IMG/VR virus record: IMGVR_UViG_3300044569_000072
Location: 1-41,855 of that record
From: a virus
Length of the DNA stretch: 41,855 nt
Reading direction: 5' to 3' (one strand)
The notes below the pieces were generated by a model. It saw only the letters and a program-made list of their open reading frames with translations, was not told the origin of the DNA and ran no database searches. The translations under genes were made by a program, and so were the position numbers. Of this stretch, positions 14,688 to 31,673 are shown one piece after another (the first letter of the stretch is position 1; every line of letters starts with the position of its first letter).

Positions 14688-16340
14688 CTAGAACGGTCTC
14701 CTCATGGGCTTGGCCACGTTCCTGTGCGAGGAGGAGAGCAGGTCGGCGAGCATGCTCATGGCGTCGGGCGCGTCGTCGTGGCGGTTCTTGCCGTCGAGGA
14801 CGTACTCGCTCATCTGCTGCATGAAGGTGGAGTAGTCGTCACCCGGGCGGTACAGCGACGGGTCGCGGAACACGCAGTTCTCAAGCACCCACGGCGAGCT
14901 CGCGAGTATCCTCGTCTCCTTGTTCGAGCCGGTGTACTTCTTCTGCACCGCACAGACGCAGCCGTCCTCGGCGAGCATCGCCCCGACGTCGTCGGCGACC
15001 TTGCCACCAGCCGCGTTCGACTCGAAGCGCACCTGCATGACGGCGTTGGCCTCTATGACGCTCGCGAGCCTTCGGTTCACGACGGACGGGGACGAGTGGT
15101 CGCACACGGCGTCGATGACGAACCACCTGGGGGTGGAGTCCCACTTGGCCGCAACGGGCATGGCGCAGTAGTCCTCGCCCGTCCCCTTGGTGTCCACCAC
15201 GCCAACGACGCGGGCGGGGGGGCCGCTGGGCAGCGTCAGGTAGCGCTCCATGGCGTCGGGCGGGTACAGCTGGCCCTGCCTCACGTGGGGCGCGCCGTCG
15301 TACTTCGCGGCGTAGGTCGCCTCGTCGGTCGTCCTGCGCATGTCGAGGTAGTAGCTGCGGTCGAAGCCCACGCCGTAGAGGTAGTCGAAGTTTGACTCTC
15401 CCGTCTCGGGGTCGAGCGCCGGTATCGAGAGCTCGTGGAAGCCCGGCTCGCCCTCGTGCAGCTCCACCATCCTGCCGATGGGGTCTGCCACGTCCCACCT
15501 CGTGCCGACCATGAGCTGCTTCGCGCCGCGCTTGCGGCGATCGTAGCACTGGTTGACGTACGCCTCCCACTTCGACTGGAGGCGTCGGGGGCTCATGGCC
15601 TCCTCGAGGTCCTTCACGAGGTCGTCGGCGTAGAGCCACCCACCCTCCCCCACCTCCACCGCGCCGGTGAGCGTGCCCTCGACCGAGCGGCACGTGACGG
15701 TGGGGTACGACGTGTGCTTCCTGAGGGAGAAGGCCTCGTCCTCGCTCGACTGCCACACGAGGGGCGACTCGGGGAATATCTCGTCGAACCTGTACGCCGA
15801 GTCGGACGCGTACTGAAGCTCCTGCACGTAGAAGTGCTTGGTGAGCTTGTCGGAGTGCGCGGTCATGAGGTTCGAGTGCCTGGGGTCTCGGCCCGCGTGC
15901 CATGCCATCGCCATGCCGCAGACGCTCGACTTGCCAGATCTGGGCGGCAGCGACACCGACAGGAACTCCGCGCCGACGCCCGTCTCCAGCCACTGCAGCT
16001 CTCGGCACAGTCGCATGAGCCTCGCGCGCCTGGGGAGCCACAGCCTAGACTCGGGCGCGCGGTCGAACTCCATCGCCTGCATGAACGCGTCGAGGTCGAG
16101 CGGGGCGTCGAGCGTCAGCGCCTCGCGCAGCCACCCGCCAAGCGACTCGAGCCCGCGCGCGTCGGCCCACCCGCTGCGTATGGCGTCGGACAGCGCCCGC
16201 CTCGCCCCCATGAGGTCGGCGTGCGAGGACTCGCCGTCATCTGCCATCTGCCGGAGCAGCGACATGAGGTCGGCATAAGCGCCGAGGTCACGCGGGCTCG
16301 CGGATATGTAGCTAAGTATGTTGTCGCAGGCGTCTCCCAT
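14688..16340 (-). CDS. terL: Terminase large subunit
   Basis: About 550 aa with a Walker A-like motif (SLPPRSGKSS) followed by a nuclease-type C-terminal half. Start is uncertain: ATG at 16340 or GTG at 16373. Confidence 0.85.
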   Translation of the reverse strand: MGDACDNILSYISASPRDLGAYADLMSLLRQMADDGESSHADLMGARRALSDAIRSGWADARGLESLGGWLREALTLDAPLDLDAFMQAMEFDRAPESRLWLPRRARLMRLCRELQWLETGVGAEFLSVSLPPRSGKSSVCGMAMAWHAGRDPRHSNLMTAHSDKLTKHFYVQELQYASDSAYRFDEIFPESPLVWQSSEDEAFSLRKHTSYPTVTCRSVEGTLTGAVEVGEGGWLYADDLVKDLEEAMSPRRLQSKWEAYVNQCYDRRKRGAKQLMVGTRWDVADPIGRMVELHEGEPGFHELSIPALDPETGESNFDYLYGVGFDRSYYLDMRRTTDEATYAAKYDGAPHVRQGQLYPPDAMERYLTLPSGPPARVVGVVDTKGTGEDYCAMPVAAKWDSTPRWFVIDAVCDHSSPSVVNRRLASVIEANAVMQVRFESNAAGGKVADDVGAMLAEDGCVCAVQKKYTGSNKETRILASSPWVLENCVFRDPSLYRPGDDYSTFMQQMSEYVLDGKNRHDDAPDAMSMLADLLSSSHRNVAKPMRRPF

Positions 16341-16455
16341 GCCCGCCGACGCTACCAGCGGGCGGGGACGCACTCGTGCCGCGAGCGGTCGCGGGGCGCA
16401 TCGTGCGGGGACTCCACCCTATTAGGGGCGCAGCCCGAAGACCGCATGGGCGTGC

Positions 16456-17034
16456 CTAGGCTGCGCTCCTCAGCTCGTACCACTTCGTGCGGCCCACGCC
16501 CACGGCCCGGCACGCCTCGGCCACGGACTCCTCGCGCGCGCCCACACGCCTCTGGTGCTCGGCGAGCAGCGCCGGGTCGACCTCCTTCGGCGGCCTGCCG
16601 TCGCGGTAGCCGGGCCTCGTGCGCGCCAGCTCCCTGCCCTCGCGCGTGCGCTCCACGATCATGTCGCGCTCGAACTCGGCCATGGCGAACATGACGCTCA
16701 CGACCATCCTGCCCATCGGCGTGTCGTCTATGACCCCGCCCATGTTGAGCACCCGCACGCTCACGCCCCGGTCTATGAGACCCCTCACGAGCGAGCATCC
16801 CTGCACCGTCGACCTCGCTATGCGGTCGAGCTTGGTCACCACGAGCGAGTCACCCGCGCGCATCCTCGCGAGCAGGCGGTCCAGCTCGGGGCGGTCAGTG
16901 GTCGTGCCGGTGTAGGTCTCCTCCACGACCTCGTCGCAGCCGTCGCCCGCGAGCGCCTTCCTCTGCACCTCGAGCGAGTTGCCGTCCCTCGCCTGGCCCC
17001 GCGTGGACACCCGAGCGTACCCGTACGCGGTCAT
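16456..17034 (-). CDS. Small serine recombinase (resolvase/invertase family)
   Basis: 192 aa: MTAYGYARVSTRGQ...TDRPELDRLL...GDSLVVTKLDRIARS...MAEFERDMIVERTREG..., plus a C-terminal HTH. The architecture matches Hin/Gin/resolvase. The ATGA overlap with the upstream HTH gene suggests translational coupling. Confidence 0.85.
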   Translation of the reverse strand: MTAYGYARVSTRGQARDGNSLEVQRKALAGDGCDEVVEETYTGTTTDRPELDRLLARMRAGDSLVVTKLDRIARSTVQGCSLVRGLIDRGVSVRVLNMGGVIDDTPMGRMVVSVMFAMAEFERDMIVERTREGRELARTRPGYRDGRPPKEVDPALLAEHQRRVGAREESVAEACRAVGVGRTKWYELRSAA

Positions 17035-17285
17035 CGCGCGTCGCCCCCCTCCCCCATGACGTAGCTGCCCTCGGGGAGCTTCTTGCCCCTCTGGACGAGC
17101 GCGACCTCGTATCCCAGCTCGGACAGGTACCTCATGGCTACGGCGAGGGACGGGTTGTCCTTCGCGACGACCGACGCGACCGCAGGCTGCGACACGCCGA
17201 CCCTTCTCGACAGGTCTGCCCTCGTTATCCCCGCCGCGTCGCAGGCGTCAGTGAGCGCCCTTCCGAACCCAGTCTTCTCCGCCAT
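17031..17285 (-). CDS. XRE-type HTH DNA-binding protein
   Basis: 84 aa from the ATG at 17285 (RBS GAGGGAGGA). The motif ITRADLSRRVGVSQPAVASVV looks like a helix-turn-helix. Confidence 0.65.
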   Translation of the reverse strand: MAEKTGFGRALTDACDAAGITRADLSRRVGVSQPAVASVVAKDNPSLAVAMRYLSELGYEVALVQRGKKLPEGSYVMGEGGDAR

Positions 17286-17499
17286 ATGCGTCCTCCCTCT
17301 CGTAATGTTGCGCATGATGGTATAGCTATTGCTTCATTATCGCAAGGGCCTTTTTGTTTTCGTGGGCCGTCGCGGGGCTAAGCAGGGGCTAAAAGTGCCT
17401 CCCGAATCCCTGTCCGGTACCCCTCGCCGCGATCTACCGCGCGCATAACCGCAGGTAAACGATATCGATAAGTTCACACATACTGATATACACGACGAC

Positions 17500-17604
17500 T
17501 TAAACAATCACTTATGAATAATCTATGGAGGGCCGAACGTGACGTTAAGTAATCGCTTATGAATAGGGTAGAGTCACAACCAGTTAAGCAATGGCTTATC
17601 AATC
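17500..17604. promoter_or_regulatory. Three 21-bp direct repeats with internal dyads (operator-like or res-like array)
   Basis: ttaaacaatcacttatgaata (17500-17520), ttaagtaatcgcttatgaata (17545-17565) and ttaagcaatggcttatcaatc (17584-17604). Each contains TAAG-N6-CTTA. They lie in an AT-rich divergent intergenic region. Confidence 0.6.
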
Positions 17605-17623
17605 ACGACGGAAGGGGCACCAG

Positions 17624-18028
17624 ATGCTAGCCGACATGACCCAGGAGGAGACCGACCTACACAACCGCGAGCAGTGCCGAAGGATGGCCGAGGAGGTGGA
17701 GGCCTACGCGGAGGGCCGCGTCTACAGGGACGAGGACGGGGACACGCACGTCATAGACAGCGACGAGGAGCCGGGCGAGGACTGGGAGCAGCTGGGCGTA
17801 AGCGACTACCTAGACGACGTGCTCGACATCACATACATGGTAAGCCGCGACCGCGACTACCAGAGCGCGCTCCTATACGTGGCCGTGGGCGGCCCCACGA
17901 TATGGATAGACACGGACACCAGCTACGTACGCCTCACGTGGGGCGGCGACACGGCGTCATACGCGCTCGCCTACAGCGCACGCGACGCCCTGGACGAGGA
18001 GCTAAGCGAGCTCTGGAGGTGCGAGTGA
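17624..18028 (+). CDS. Acidic hypothetical protein (P1)
   Basis: 134 aa from the ATG at 17624 (RBS GGAAGGGG); the ORF track start is 17591. Asp/Glu-rich. No family recognised. Confidence 0.6.
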   Translation: MLADMTQEETDLHNREQCRRMAEEVEAYAEGRVYRDEDGDTHVIDSDEEPGEDWEQLGVSDYLDDVLDITYMVSRDRDYQSALLYVAVGGPTIWIDTDTSYVRLTWGGDTASYALAYSARDALDEELSELWRCE

Positions 18029-18114
18029 TGGCCGCCGTCACGCTCGCCTACCTTGTGGGCGCGGTGGTCGGCGCGGTGCTGACTGAACTATCTGGCTACC
18101 TATTTAACCGATAG
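18028..18114 (+). CDS. 28-aa hydrophobic micro-peptide (pep1)
   Basis: MAAVTLAYLVGAVVGAVLTELSGYLFNR. ATGA overlap with P1. Its C-terminal motif is shared with pep2, and the differences are mostly synonymous. Confidence 0.55.
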   Translation: MAAVTLAYLVGAVVGAVLTELSGYLFNR

Positions 18115-18129
18115 ACAAAAGGAGACGAA

Positions 18130-18432
18130 ATGTTTTACGCATTCGAGCATTACTACGGAGTCGGCACCACAGACGAAAACGGTAGCCGCATCGGGCACAT
18201 TAAATTCTTTGATACCAAGCACGCCCGGGACGCATGGGTGGACGCTGACGTGTGGGACGGCAACTACGACCGCGAGCCCATGACGCGACCTGAGGCGCTC
18301 AGAGTCATGCGAGCCGATGGCGAGTACATGGACGAGGTCCGCAGCGCGCCGTACGGCGGCTACCACTCGGATCTGGCCGAGCTGTCGGACTACCGCGCAT
18401 GGTGCGAAAATCGTGAGAGGCAGTGCTACTGA
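18130..18432 (+). CDS. Hypothetical protein (P2)
   Basis: 100-aa ORF with RBS AAGGAGA 6 nt upstream. No family recognised. Confidence 0.6.
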   Translation: MFYAFEHYYGVGTTDENGSRIGHIKFFDTKHARDAWVDADVWDGNYDREPMTRPEALRVMRADGEYMDEVRSAPYGGYHSDLAELSDYRAWCENRERQCY

Positions 18433-18500
18433 TGACGCGCGGGAAGCACATTACGGCCGCCGTGCTGACCGAGCTATCCGATTACATCTTTAATCGATAA
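18432..18500 (+). CDS. 22-aa micro-peptide (pep2), paralogue of pep1
   Basis: MTRGKHITAAVLTELSDYIFNR. ATGA overlap with P2. Confidence 0.5.
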   Translation: MTRGKHITAAVLTELSDYIFNR

Positions 18501-18510
18501 GAGGCAGATT

Positions 18511-18822
18511 ATGAAAAAGGAAAGCGGAAAGACCCTCCACGGCGAGACGCTTACGAGAGTAAGCAAGACGACGGCCTACAAGCACTACAGAGCCGGCGAA
18601 GCGGTCTATGTGCTCGGGTGCGACCTGGTCGCATACGCGACCCAGCAAAAATACGTGATCGAAATGCTTGACCCCGCGTACCGCCTGGGCTGGACGGAAT
18701 CTGATATCAAATCATATTTTGAATATGACGTCGGGCTTTGCACGGCCGAGGTGTGCGGCGGCATCTGCGGGCGGTACCTGTCGTACTACGTCCGCGAGGA
18801 GGTGGCCGACCATGACGCATAG
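18511..18822 (+). CDS. Hypothetical protein (P3)
   Basis: 103-aa ORF, Cys-containing (CTAEVCGGICGRY). No family recognised. Confidence 0.6.
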   Translation: MKKESGKTLHGETLTRVSKTTAYKHYRAGEAVYVLGCDLVAYATQQKYVIEMLDPAYRLGWTESDIKSYFEYDVGLCTAEVCGGICGRYLSYYVREEVADHDA

Positions 18823-18928
18823 TAGACGCATCGCGGCGGGCGTCGCCGTGGCCCTAGCCGTCGGCATCGTAACATACTGCGCCTACTGGGGCGGGCCCAC
18901 GCGCGCCCTGTGTTCGCATGGGACCTGA
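18812..18928 (+). CDS. 38-aa membrane micro-peptide (pep3)
   Basis: MTHSRRIAAGVAVALAVGIVTYCAYWGGPTRALCSHGT. Overlaps the P3 3' end by 11 nt. Confidence 0.4.
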   Translation: MTHSRRIAAGVAVALAVGIVTYCAYWGGPTRALCSHGT

Positions 18929-18942
18929 TACCACAATGGACC

Positions 18943-19074
18943 ATGGACACGCTGACGTCCGTGTTCTGGCGGCGCTATCTTATCTGCGCCTTCGGGTCCG
19001 ATTACGCACGCACTCTGGACACGCGCATCACAGGGCCGGAGGGGGTGACCGAATGCGCGGGCACAGCTGCCTAG
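18943..19074 (+). CDS. Small hypothetical protein (P4)
   Basis: 43 aa from the ATG (MDTLTSVFWRRYLICAFGSDYARTLDTRITGPEGVTECAGTAA). This frame has the best GC3 here. An upstream GTG at 18910 is also possible. Confidence 0.35.
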   Translation: MDTLTSVFWRRYLICAFGSDYARTLDTRITGPEGVTECAGTAA

Positions 19075-19151
19075 CGGCGCTGCTAGCCGTGATACTAGCG
19101 CCGGTGCTCGTACCTATACTGATACTAAGGGCACTACTACGCATGATCTAA
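19053..19151 (+). CDS. 32-aa membrane micro-peptide (pep4)
   Basis: MRGHSCLAALLAVILAPVLVPILILRALLRMI. RBS GGAGGGGG lies 7 nt upstream. Overlaps the P4 3' end. Confidence 0.5.
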   Translation: MRGHSCLAALLAVILAPVLVPILILRALLRMI

Positions 19152-19153
19152 CC

Positions 19154-19186
19154 AGGCCCTCGCCCGGACTATCCGAGCGGGGGCCT
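19154..19186 (+). terminator. Hairpin after the plus-strand small-gene cluster
   Basis: aggccctcgcccgg-actat-ccgagcgggggcct forms a 14-bp stem with one mismatch and one G-U pair. No T-run follows, so the call is weak. Confidence 0.35.
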
Positions 19187-19509
19187 ACTCATGCGCATCG
19201 CCCCCGCGCGCCCTGCGACGCCTCCACCACTCGGGGGGGGGACGCGGGGCGCGACCCTTCTCGCGCGGCACGGCCCCGAGCGCTCCCAGTCGCATCTGCG
19301 AATGAGCCATTCTAAGGCGTTCTAAGACTTCGGACTATTCAATATGGACACTTATAGCCATAACCGCGCGCACGCACGCTAGCGTCGTTCCTGACTCTTC
19401 ATGGATGCATCCGCGCACGTCTCGTAGTGCTACGCACGGCTCCGCATGAGCGCCGCGCGCGGCCTGAGAGGTGGAGGCCCGGGCGCTCTGTCGCTCCGCG
19501 TCTCGACAC

Positions 19510-19546
19510 AAAAAAAGGCCCCCGCCAGGTCTCCCCGGCGAGGGCC
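19510..19546 (-). terminator. Rho-independent terminator for the terS operon
   Basis: The minus strand reads GGCCCTCGCCGG-GGAGACCT-GGCGGGGGCC followed by TTTTTTT. Confidence 0.75.
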
Positions 19547-19622
19547 GTGTGTGCGCGCTGGTCGCGCGCCCGATTCCGTACAAATTTGCGCGCAAATGTT
19601 ACTAACTCACTCTCTTATAGGC

Positions 19623-19840
19623 GTGTACCCTGCGCGAAAGTCGCTGCGGCTCCGCACGGCGCGAAAAAAAGTCGCAACCTTCGTCGTGTAGCCCGCGTGA
19701 AAGTCGCTGACCGCGTGTAGGGCGCGCGAAAGTCGCCGCGTAGCCGCCGCGAGAGTCGCGAAAGCCCCCGCAGCTCCACTATTCGGGCGGAGGGGGCGTG
19801 TAGCCCCTCCGAAAGTCGGTGTAGGCCTCGCGAAAGTCGC
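19623..19840. repeat. Array of six 22-bp direct repeats plus one degenerate copy, consensus GTGTAGsCCnnCGCGAAAGTCGC
   Basis: Units at 19623, 19686, 19715, 19738, 19798 and 19819, with a degenerate copy at 19650-19675. Gaps range from 0 to 41 bp. The last unit overlaps the terS stop codon. Confidence 0.85.
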
Positions 19841-20427
19841 TAATCCTTCGGCGGGTCGCGCTCCTCGTCGTCTCCCGGCGGCTCGACGCGCACGTCCTCG
19901 GCCTCCTGCGGGAGCGCCTTCGAGTACTTCTCCTCGAGCTGCTTCCTTGACGGCCCGCGCTCGTCGTCCTCGTGCTTCACGACCGTCTGCGACTCGTCCT
20001 TGTAGTTGAAGTTGTTCTTGCCGAGGAAGATGCCGGTGACGGGGTTGCGGTAGCCGTCGTTCTGGAACGCGAACTCCCACGAAAGCTCTAAAGTTTTAAT
20101 TAATTTTTGCAAAACAGATGCGCTTTCGGGACTTAGCCTGTCTTCTAGCAGGTGACTCCTGCCCTTGGACCAGTCCAACAGGTCCTCTCGTGTGAATCCG
20201 AGGGCCATGCACAGACCGCTGATGAGCACCTTGGAGTGGTGCCGGTCGCACAGATCGAAGTACTCGACGGCGCGCTCGCGCATCGCGTCGGGGTCCGAGA
20301 TGTCGATGGCGGGCATGTCCAGCAGCTCCAGCGAGAACAGGATGGACTCGTGGTTGTTCGCGGGGACCTGCGAGTTCGGCGCGGTGCTGCCGCTGTGCGG
20401 GCGCGGCCCGCTACCCTTGCCGCCCAT
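19840..20427 (-). CDS. terS: Terminase small subunit
   Basis: 195 aa. The segment ...AVEYFDLCDRHHSKVLISGLCMALGFTREDLLDW...TGIFLGKNNFNYKDES matches the YFxxC...GLAxALGF...IFxLKNNFGxKD pattern of Gram-positive phage TerS proteins. RBS AGGAGG. Confidence 0.75.
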   Translation of the reverse strand: MGGKGSGPRPHSGSTAPNSQVPANNHESILFSLELLDMPAIDISDPDAMRERAVEYFDLCDRHHSKVLISGLCMALGFTREDLLDWSKGRSHLLEDRLSPESASVLQKLIKTLELSWEFAFQNDGYRNPVTGIFLGKNNFNYKDESQTVVKHEDDERGPSRKQLEEKYSKALPQEAEDVRVEPPGDDEERDPPKD

Positions 20428-22775: not shown

Positions 22776-23110
22776 CGGTCCTCGCCCCCCGGCAGAGTCG
22801 CGGCGGCGGTCCACACGAGCACGCAGGGCACCCACTCGATGCCCTCGTACTCGCGGCGGGCGCGCCACTCGTCCTCGGGCTCCTCGCCGTCGTAGGCGAC
22901 GTCCAGGAACTCGACGTAGTCGAAGCCGTCGCGCTCGACGATGTGCTCGCTGACCTCGGCGACCTCCGCTACCTGGGCGCGGCGGACCTCCTGGAACGTG
23001 TATGCGTACTCGTACGGGTCGCACAGGTCGTTGTCCACCATGGCCAGCACCGGCAGCCCCGGGTTGTCCCGGCACAGCTCGGCAAGCTCGTCCGACGTCA
23101 TCGCGCTCAC
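22772..23110 (-). CDS. Acidic hypothetical protein
   Basis: 112-aa ORF with high GC3. GTG start inside GAGTGA. Confidence 0.5.
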   Translation of the reverse strand: MSAMTSDELAELCRDNPGLPVLAMVDNDLCDPYEYAYTFQEVRRAQVAEVAEVSEHIVERDGFDYVEFLDVAYDGEEPEDEWRARREYEGIEWVPCVLVWTAAATLPGGEDR

Positions 23111-23124
23111 TCGGCATCACCTGC
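23107..23124. repeat. 18-bp direct repeat, copy 1 (tcactcggcatcacctgc)
   Basis: Identical to 23820-23837. Contains the stop codon, an RBS-like AGGTGA and the next GTG start. Confidence 0.9.
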
Positions 23125-23823
23125 ATCGACAGCCATGCACGCGAAAGAGCATTCCGGCATGATTTCGGATTCCATATTCCCTCGGCAGGGGTCAAGCTCG
23201 TCGAGATAAACACCGCGTATACAGCTATGGCCGACTTGACGCTCCTGCTTTGCTCGACGGGCGAAAACTTCTGGAAAGTCCTTTCTAATTCTATTCCAGT
23301 AACCCATTCCGCCCTTGACGCAGCCGATGCAGTTGTTGTTTGCATAGCCAAGCTCATACATTTTCGGTCTCTTCAACCCGATCTTATCGGCAATGGCGTG
23401 ATAGTCTGCTTTCGTAAGGCCTCGGTCGATTAGCGGGAACTCGGAGCCAAACTCAGTCGCTTCCGTGATGCGTTTAGCCCTGCGTGCCTCAGTAGCGTCA
23501 TAACCCCAGACATAGGTCAGACCCGGCTGTGCGTTATGTGTCTCCCACGCCTGCCGCACGCGCTTTTTAAGCATTAGCGTACACCGAGCACCATAGGGTC
23601 CATTGATATACTTATCTTTATCAATCACGTTATCTACAGACTGGCCATACTCAAGCGAGCTAACTATTTCGATTTTAAATCCGAGAATCTGCTCGCAATC
23701 AGATAAAAATCGTAAAGAATCAGGATGCTGGTTAATAACATTTATATAGACGCATCGCTCTGGTTTGCTTATATACGCAGCGATTGCAGAAGATACACCT
23801 GCACTAATCCATGCGACTTTCAC
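23107..23823 (-). CDS. PAPS-reductase-like / PP-loop ATPase family protein
   Basis: 238 aa: MKVAWISAGVSSAIAAY (PP-loop-like), ...GARCTLMLKKRV..., ...NNCIGCVKGGMGYW.... Visibly lower GC than its neighbours. Confidence 0.6.
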   Translation of the reverse strand: MKVAWISAGVSSAIAAYISKPERCVYINVINQHPDSLRFLSDCEQILGFKIEIVSSLEYGQSVDNVIDKDKYINGPYGARCTLMLKKRVRQAWETHNAQPGLTYVWGYDATEARRAKRITEATEFGSEFPLIDRGLTKADYHAIADKIGLKRPKMYELGYANNNCIGCVKGGMGYWNRIRKDFPEVFARRAKQERQVGHSCIRGVYLDELDPCRGNMESEIMPECSFACMAVDAGDAE

Positions 23824-23837
23824 TCGGCATCACCTGC
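23820..23837. repeat. 18-bp direct repeat, copy 2
   Basis: Identical to 23107-23124. Confidence 0.9.
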
Positions 23838-31598: not shown

Positions 31599-31673
31599 TG
31601 GTGGACGCGGCGGGTGTCGGACCCGCGTCTGCCGCTTAGGGGGCGGGCGCTCTGTCCACTGAGCTACGTGGCG
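31599..31673 (-). pseudogene. tRNA-Arg(CCT)-like relic (degenerate, probably non-functional)
   Basis: The minus strand reads CGCCACG-TA-GCTCAGTGGACAGAGC-G-CCCGC-CCCCTAA-GCGGC-AGAC-GCGGG-TCCGACA-CCCGC-CGCGTCC-A-CCA. The D-arm, T-stem and CCA are intact. Only 4 of 7 acceptor pairs form, and both C33 and C55 replace the conserved U. Confidence 0.5.

Follow-up and report, generated by a model that had tools for sequence, protein, structure and literature searches.

The window analyzed here is the whole of virus record IMGVR_UViG_3300044569_000072 (positions 1 to 41,855), a complete record of 41,855 bp with a GC content of approximately 68% that carries most of its genes on the minus strand. This text concerns an operon of eight small open reading frames (ORFs) on its plus strand, between positions 17624 and 19151, in which four proteins or putative proteins (P1 to P4) alternate with four micro-ORFs (pep1 to pep4). 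An earlier interpretation made from the letters of the DNA (the sequence-only reading) had described these as four tandem pairs of a small protein and a micro-peptide. All eight ORFs are present in the sequence as that reading placed them:

17624..18028, plus strand: P1, 134 amino acids (aa), first gene of the operon; GC content at third codon positions (GC3) 0.88
18028..18114, plus strand: pep1, 28 aa, a hydrophobic span followed by a tail; GGAGG 8 nucleotides (nt) before the start; GC3 0.72
18130..18432, plus strand: P2, 100 aa, an ORFan; GC content by codon position 0.60/0.44/0.76
18432..18500, plus strand: pep2, 22 aa, eight new codons followed by the duplicated tail; GAGAGG 11 nt upstream
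18511..18822, plus strand: P3, 103 aa, an ORFan; GC3 0.75
18812..18928, plus strand: pep3, 38 aa, overlapping the end of P3 by 11 nt; GAGGAGG 9 nt upstream
18943..19074, plus strand: P4, 43 aa, a doubtful gene; GC3 of 0.80 in its frame versus 0.56 and 0.54 in the other frames
19053..19151, plus strand: pep4, 32 aa, last ORF of the operon

The eight ORFs are closely packed. The starts of pep1 and pep2 had been described as ATGA overlaps; the junctions actually read TGATG, a one-base overlap of the start codon with the stop codon of P1 and P2, respectively. GGAGG-type motifs are found 7-9 nt upstream of the start codons of pep1, pep3, and pep4, and no Shine-Dalgarno motif precedes P4. When the micro-ORFs are counted, the gaps between ORFs are 10-15 nt; when they are left out, the gaps become 78-331 nt, compared with a range of -11 to 89 nt in this genome. 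Genome-wide, an ATG-initiated ORF of at least 20 aa that starts at the stop codon of a gene is nearly always the next real gene.

The membrane-like character assigned to pep1, pep3, and pep4 was borne out by hydropathy analysis. Their best 17-residue segments score 2.27, 2.25, and 3.01, respectively, above all of 112 control ORFs (ATG-initiated, 20-45 aa, taken from the same high-GC window). The score of pep2, 0.54, is unremarkable and reveals no hydrophobic span. Based on these sequence properties, we consider pep1, pep3, and pep4 to be, for the most part, likely small membrane proteins missed by gene callers. pep2 is probably a by-product, which may still relay translation to P3.

The operon forms the plus-strand portion of a lower-GC island (16456-19840, approximately 60% GC) located between a terS-like gene and terL plus the portal gene, and lies antisense within this terS-terL accessory slot. 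Relatives of the small serine recombinase encoded in the island, with 58-72% identity, are found at the equivalent position in 34 IMG/VR loci. Half of these loci (17/34) are high-GC phages in which TerL is 69-75% identical to that of the window and the layout is identical. The order terS, cargo, helix-turn-helix (HTH) regulator and recombinase, terL is observed both in the low-GC loci L001-L007 and in the high-GC loci L024-L039 and L054, and the cargo differs in each. Homologues of the HTH protein are encoded upstream of the recombinase in at least 20 related loci. A comparison of the island with an annotated phage collection returned no DNA match and only distant relatives of the recombinase.

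Within these slots, pep4 belongs to a conserved micro-protein family. A pep4-type ORF is the last ORF before the hairpin in at least 16 related loci, including every high-GC relative, and a hairpin directly follows it in all of them. Family members (alignment A4) are 26-32 aa long and contain one hydrophobic span with an APVxxP core. The invariant columns M1, P17, P21, L25, and L28 include two prolines four residues apart. The relatives were first reached via weak tblastn matches. From 1015 six-frame segments, a hidden Markov model (HMM) built from 13 relatives, with the window left out, recovered pep4 with an E value of 2.6e-6 (23.6 bits); the second-ranked match had an E value of 1.9. Among 10 close relatives the differences are distributed 206/73/539 over the three codon positions, with 469 synonymous versus 160 non-synonymous codon differences, and the family is under clear purifying selection. 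The gene that precedes the pep4 relatives encodes either a peptide of 36-38 aa (family A6, below) or a protein of 63 or 204 aa, and is never a homologue of P4. Scans with 14 members of A4 returned nothing relevant, with Oleosin at 0.057 as the only Pfam match and PHROG matches of 0.09 or weaker, and no usable match was obtained for pep4 in the ESM Atlas. A scan of viral contigs with A4 yielded 74 pattern sites, none of which could be confirmed by tblastn, the query being so short. In the low-GC slots, five of six carry hydrophobic ORFs of 22-34 aa that have a proline at their center and one end rich in Lys, and in L001 two small hydrophobic ORFs are followed by a hairpin.

A second micro-protein family, A6, was found just upstream of the pep4 relative in 10 loci. 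Its members are 36-38 aa long and differ by 280 synonymous versus 41 non-synonymous changes, a stronger constraint than that on the pep4 family. Alignment of pep1 with A6 using hhalign extends over 23 columns, from an AY..G..VG segment to the terminal Arg, with a probability of 57% and a P value of 1e-4. In a shuffle test this match gave a p value of 0.003, compared with 0.54-0.99 for pep3, pep4, and an L025 peptide used as controls. This sequence comparison is suggestive, and pep1 is probably a distant, diverged member of family A6. In loci L025 (3693-3782, minus strand) and L026 (3703-3792, minus strand), both 70% GC, the next ORF after the first cargo gene is a hydrophobic one of 30 aa with a strong ribosome-binding site (RBS). 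It is located where pep1 lies in the window, and the two copies differ by 1 base.

Membership of A6 was rejected for pep3 (hhalign probability 5%, shuffle p value 0.54). The conservation of the peptides in related phages, on which the sequence-only reading depended, holds for pep4 but not for pep3, for which no homologue was found in related slots, by profile scan or by hhalign comparison. Since pep3 adjoins the terminal peptide on its upstream side, where the relatives carry a small membrane peptide, we tentatively regard it as a lineage-specific membrane-like peptide in the position that the A6 family usually holds.

The larger ORFs present a different picture, with P1 as the only one that has relatives. 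At an E value of 1e-3 or below, the P1 family profile retrieved 1539 cluster representatives, and the domain is C-terminal in every one. Family members often contain a zinc-ribbon insert, which P1 itself does not have, and there is no Pfam model for the family. P1 matches the profile over its full length (alignments A2 and A5), including the GGP..I.IDT core and the C-terminal helix, and is 31-44% identical to its homologues in L001-L007 (IMG/VR) and to two Logan proteins. The AlphaFold model of P1 is very confident, with a predicted local distance difference test score (pLDDT) of 97. Foldseek returned no convincing solved relative of this fold (best E value 0.098), and the best VIA-align Z-score, 5.9 to pilin-like chains, is inside the stated noise range of that tool. 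The match of the family to PDB sequence profiles is restricted to the zinc-ribbon insert. The P1 homologue of L001-L007 is the first gene of a plus-strand operon whose other small genes are unrelated, located between terS and a serine recombinase gene plus terL. In 11 loci, the P1 homologues are directly followed by ordinary genes rather than pep1. No relatives of P2 or P3 were found among 5.8 billion proteins, viral contigs, and 401 sampled Coriobacteriales genomes, and P4 has no homologue within the related slots. As the sequence-only reading had stated, no known family accounts for P2, P3, P4, or the peptides, as judged by Pfam, PHROG, NCBIfam, and PADLOC scans.

A further feature of the operon is the tail VLTELSxYxFNR shared by pep1 and pep2. 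We found that it is part of a longer repeat with three copies, the third of which, a LAELSDY motif within P2, is absent from the earlier description:

18069..18125, plus strand: repeat copy A, covering the final 15 codons of pep1, the stop codon, and the RBS region of P2
18373..18423, plus strand: repeat copy B, from LAELSDY (18373-18393) to the RBS-like GAGAGGCAG, in frame as the C-terminus of P2
18454..18508, plus strand: repeat copy C, the tail of pep2, the stop codon, and the RBS of P3

Copies A and C form a direct repeat of 45-57 nt that brackets P2, with 79% identity over 42 nt, and their alignment scores better than 1000 of 1000 shuffles. The alignment of copies B and C, which runs from the motif through Asn-Arg into GAGAGGCAG, likewise beats 1000 of 1000 shuffles. 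Copy B has lost its stop codon, and P2 is accordingly longer by five codons, ending in the TGATG at which pep2 starts. In all six frames of the window the pattern ELSx[YFW] occurs three times, and all three occurrences lie within 400 bp. Elsewhere in the same genome, an exact 18-bp direct repeat is present at 23107-23124 and 23820-23837. This repeat would be a more recent case of the junction duplication that we propose around P2. The repeat around P2 is longer, is 21% diverged, and, unlike the 18-bp repeat, encodes a peptide tail that has stayed in register with the start codons to either side of it.

Comparison of the copies revealed a marked codon periodicity. Over 42 nt there are 10 base differences between the tails of pep1 and pep2. 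Eight occupy third codon positions, and the first and second positions account for one each; the binomial chance that at least 8 of 10 differences fall on one named codon position is approximately 0.003. The number of tail codons with synonymous changes only is 6 of 14 with the stop codon counted, and not 7 as had been reported. Over the 21-nt core, copies B and C show four differences, three of which are at position 3, and in the pairwise comparison of the three cores 11 of 15 differences are at third positions, with the bias present in all three comparisons. Although the copies lie in two genomic frames, this third-position bias argues that the motif has been translated as part of a protein in each of them. 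The proposal that selection acted on the peptide rather than on the DNA agrees with these data, as third-position differences dominate and the repeat matches no RNA structure, promoter, or Rfam family. We also searched for the tail elsewhere using degenerate DNA patterns for VLTELSxYxFNR. There were zero matches in viral contigs and metagenome contigs, and species-representative genomes gave two chance matches only, in Enorma and Nostoc, the former being an internal VLTEFTGYSFNR of a 538 aa chromosomal protein.

We propose, as the probable explanation, that the locus is a tightly packed accessory (moron-type) operon that combines real micro-proteins with a duplicated gene-end junction, and not a set of four pairs. 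The operon ends in its own hairpin and would be controlled from the divergent region with the three operator-like repeats. Its cargo, P1, P2, P3, and perhaps P4, would be variable, with single-pass membrane micro-proteins interleaved with the cargo and translated by stop/start coupling. The constant parts would be the small membrane proteins, with the pep4 type as the near-constant last gene, while the cargo is swapped. The VLTELSxYxFNR tail would be the native C-terminus of a pep1-type gene. As we infer the insertion history, the P2 cassette entered at the junction of this pep1-type gene, so that approximately 15 last codons, the stop codon, and the RBS were duplicated as copies A and C. The duplication would have created pep2 as a chimeric leftover without a membrane span that links the termination of P2 to the initiation of P3, and pep2 may persist through handing ribosomes from P2 to P3. 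Copy B could be an older third copy, which became the C-terminus of P2 once its stop codon was lost. The repeating look of the operon would then result from close packing with stop/start coupling together with the duplicated junction.

Several observations weigh against this explanation. The putative coding status of P2, P3, P4, and pep3 is read from composition, RBS, and packing. The A6 HMM did not retrieve pep1 in a six-frame scan, and the hhalign link between the two is moderate. Both tail copies retain the rare codons CTA, TTT, and CGA, as might be expected if the nucleotide sequence itself were constrained. The third-position pattern could perhaps have been inherited from two functional alleles that had diverged before recombination, and because of this possible inheritance it does not prove current selection on pep1 and pep2. 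Finally, a membrane or exclusion role for the peptides is an analogy, not a result.

The features that surround the operon within the slot are as follows:

14688-16373: terL, which flanks the island on one side together with the portal gene
16456..17034, minus strand: small serine recombinase, 192 aa (PF00239 at 3e-37), a fixed scaffold gene of the slot
17031..17315, minus strand: HTH_3 (XRE-type) regulator (PF01381, 9e-6; phrog_1373, 5.5e-8)
17500..17603, plus strand: three operator-like direct repeats of approximately 20 nt, TTAAGYAATNRCTTATSAAT, in the divergent control region (3 matches versus 0 expected)
19154..19186, plus strand: hairpin at the end of the operon, terminator-like without a U tract (-27 kcal/mol, z-score -4.3)
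19840-20427: terS-like gene (PF16677)

The stop codon of the HTH gene overlaps the start of the recombinase gene, and the HTH gene is transcribed divergently from the operon. The terminal hairpin starts 2 nt past the stop codon of pep4, and none of 200 shuffled sequences folds as well. A 9-mer, ATYGATAAG, occurs three times in the window versus 0.1 expected, at 17464-17472, 17595-17603 (minus strand), and 18493-18501. The first is located 36 nt upstream of operator-like repeat 1, the second forms the right half of operator-like repeat 3, and the third is the end of tail copy C, where the 9-mer includes the stop codon of pep2. It may offer the HTH protein or the recombinase an additional half-site for binding. 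A strong terminator, with a 13-pair stem followed by a T run, is present on the minus strand at 19517-19546, downstream of terS; with this terminator in place, late transcription of terL probably depends on a new start at the HTH-recombinase promoter. Just downstream of terS, short repeats that share an AGTCG core (GAAAGTCGC; 19621-19770 of the window) also form an array. Arrays with the same core occur in distant relatives of the slot, in L002 (3738-3960) and L004 (7975-8066), with the sequences AAAGTCGT and TATAGTCG. They could be TerS or pac recognition sites, or recombinase sites, all of which are candidates. Further away, the phage carries a tRNA gene at 31602-31673 on the minus strand (Rfam RF00005, 39.4 bits). 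The genome type has been grouped with Eggerthella lenta clade-1 prophages, which have a tyrosine integrase and integrate at tRNA-Leu (PMC8778435).

Other explanations of the repeating pattern were weighed against our proposal. The one closest to the original description is that each small protein is paired with its own overlapping micro-peptide in four bicistronic modules, of a toxin-antitoxin or effector-partner type, with the tail as an interaction motif. A short ORF does begin at or before the stop codon of each larger ORF, the tail is conserved at the peptide level, and the presence of the motif in P2 as well means that it could serve as an interaction module. However, the partners do not travel together. 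No micro-ORF follows the P1 homologues in L001-L007, L022, L032, and L054, and the pep4 relatives are preceded by unrelated genes. P4 lacks an RBS, none of the eight products matches a toxin-antitoxin or defence model, and overlapping stop and start codons are the norm between genes of this genome. With P1 homologues lacking pep1, pep4 relatives lacking P4, and the tail best explained as a duplicated junction, the repeating protein-plus-peptide architecture did not hold up, and we consider paired modules improbable. Viewed from the opposite side, pep4 might be the sole functional micro-gene, and pep1, pep2, and perhaps pep3 might be untranslated or neutral remnants of recombination, with codon-like substitutions inherited from a time when the tails ended intact genes in different phages. 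We regard this as unlikely, yet it has points in its favor: pep2 has no hydrophobic span and a chimeric look, copies A and C bracket a cassette, and the tail motif is missing from the viral and metagenome collections. When 1043 stop-anchored peptides were ranked against the only Coriobacteriales homologue of P1, which ends in IFNCR, the pep2 tail came 2nd and the pep1 tail 5th. This single post hoc comparison hints that the tails could be old ends of P1-type genes, an unproven lead. A profile of the whole P1 family ranks the same tails 115 and 190 of 1043, and in a first profile scan they were absent from the best 40; neither scan supports the tails as fossils of the P1-family C-terminus. For pep1, the good RBS, the GC3, a hydrophobic span above that of any control ORF, and the alignment with family A6 all argue against a remnant, as does the fact that pep1 and pep2 start in identical TGATG junctions and occupy what would be unusually long gaps without them.

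The repeat could alternatively act as DNA or RNA: as a site marking cassette boundaries for the recombinase, as a promoter inside the operon that serves P2 and P3, or as a ribozyme or processing element. The direct repeats flank P2 with a serine recombinase gene only 1 kb away, rare codons are kept in both copies, and the ATYGATAAG at the end of copy C is found twice more in the operator region. Nevertheless, the differences follow a three-base period in the peptide frame of each copy, and the copies lie in two genomic frames. The predicted folding of the copies is not beyond that of shuffled sequences (z-scores of 0.15, -0.37, and 0.10), and no sigma-70-type promoter, Rfam family, or ribozyme was found for them. 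A search with Rfam of 17250-19900 gave no relevant match of any kind at E values up to 5, and the only match in the window at gathering score is the tRNA. By eye, the repeat shows no dyad symmetry of the kind present at serine-recombinase crossover sites, and the junctions of related slots have only RBS-type repeats in common. The chances of a nucleotide element are slim. A more elaborate version, in which the slot is an integron-like, recombinase-driven cassette system with copies A and C as boundary sites of the serine recombinase and the pep4-type micro-protein, found in high-GC and low-GC gut phages alike, as a core part and not as cargo, strikes us as very improbable indeed.

Several more specific candidates found no support. 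A programmed -1 frameshift of P1 or P2 into the tail was excluded, as there is no X XXY YYZ heptamer in the last 30 nt, and the -1 frame behind P2 is not open, with a TGA at 18414-18416. The differences between the copies involve all four bases and there is no reverse transcriptase in the island, which does not fit a diversity-generating retroelement. Holins are membrane proteins encoded beside an endolysin and are usually 60 aa or longer; the peptides here are 28-38 aa, and no lysin domain was found among the island neighbours. A type II toxin-antitoxin system is not supported, as none of the eight products matches a toxin or antitoxin model of Pfam, NCBIfam, or PADLOC and the pairs are not kept in relatives. 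Type I toxins such as Fst or Hok are the same kind of tiny single-span membrane peptide. Unlike them, the peptides in the window have no evident antisense RNA partner and there is no Rfam match in the island, and no small-toxin family model matches the 14 members of A4.

The accessory operon that we propose resembles a known system at the same genomic position. In phage JBD26, a moron placed antisense between terS and terL provides defence that is expressed from the prophage (PMC10884400). Like this moron, whose protein Tab has 83 residues (PMC10884400), the operon consists of antisense small-protein accessory genes with their own promoter, and hence expression from the prophage is possible. 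The two differ in that there is no sequence relation to tab and the slot in the window adds an HTH regulator, a small serine recombinase, several genes, and membrane micro-proteins. Small membrane proteins of fewer than 50 aa from bacteria and phages have been reviewed (PMC12648545), and the peptides in the window, at 22-38 aa with a single hydrophobic span and a short charged end, are similarly easily overlooked by annotation. By analogy with these systems, the micro-proteins would act at the host membrane, and our guess is that their role may be membrane-level exclusion or defence expressed from the prophage.

The locus also offers a caution for claims about small ORFs, as a duplicated gene-end junction can mimic a conserved functional motif of partner peptides. 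At the same time, gene callers miss proteins this small, and half of the translated units of the operon would go unannotated. Our analysis suggests that the terS-terL slot of these gut phages nearly always carries a tiny, proline-kinked membrane peptide, often with a second one, beside swappable cargo. The pep4 type and A6 represent two new families of micro-proteins, from phages whose hosts are Eggerthella-like bacteria and Firmicutes, gut bacteria whose phage-host biology is poorly known. If the peptides are indeed exclusion or defence factors, they would extend the short list of functions of morons located at the terminase genes.

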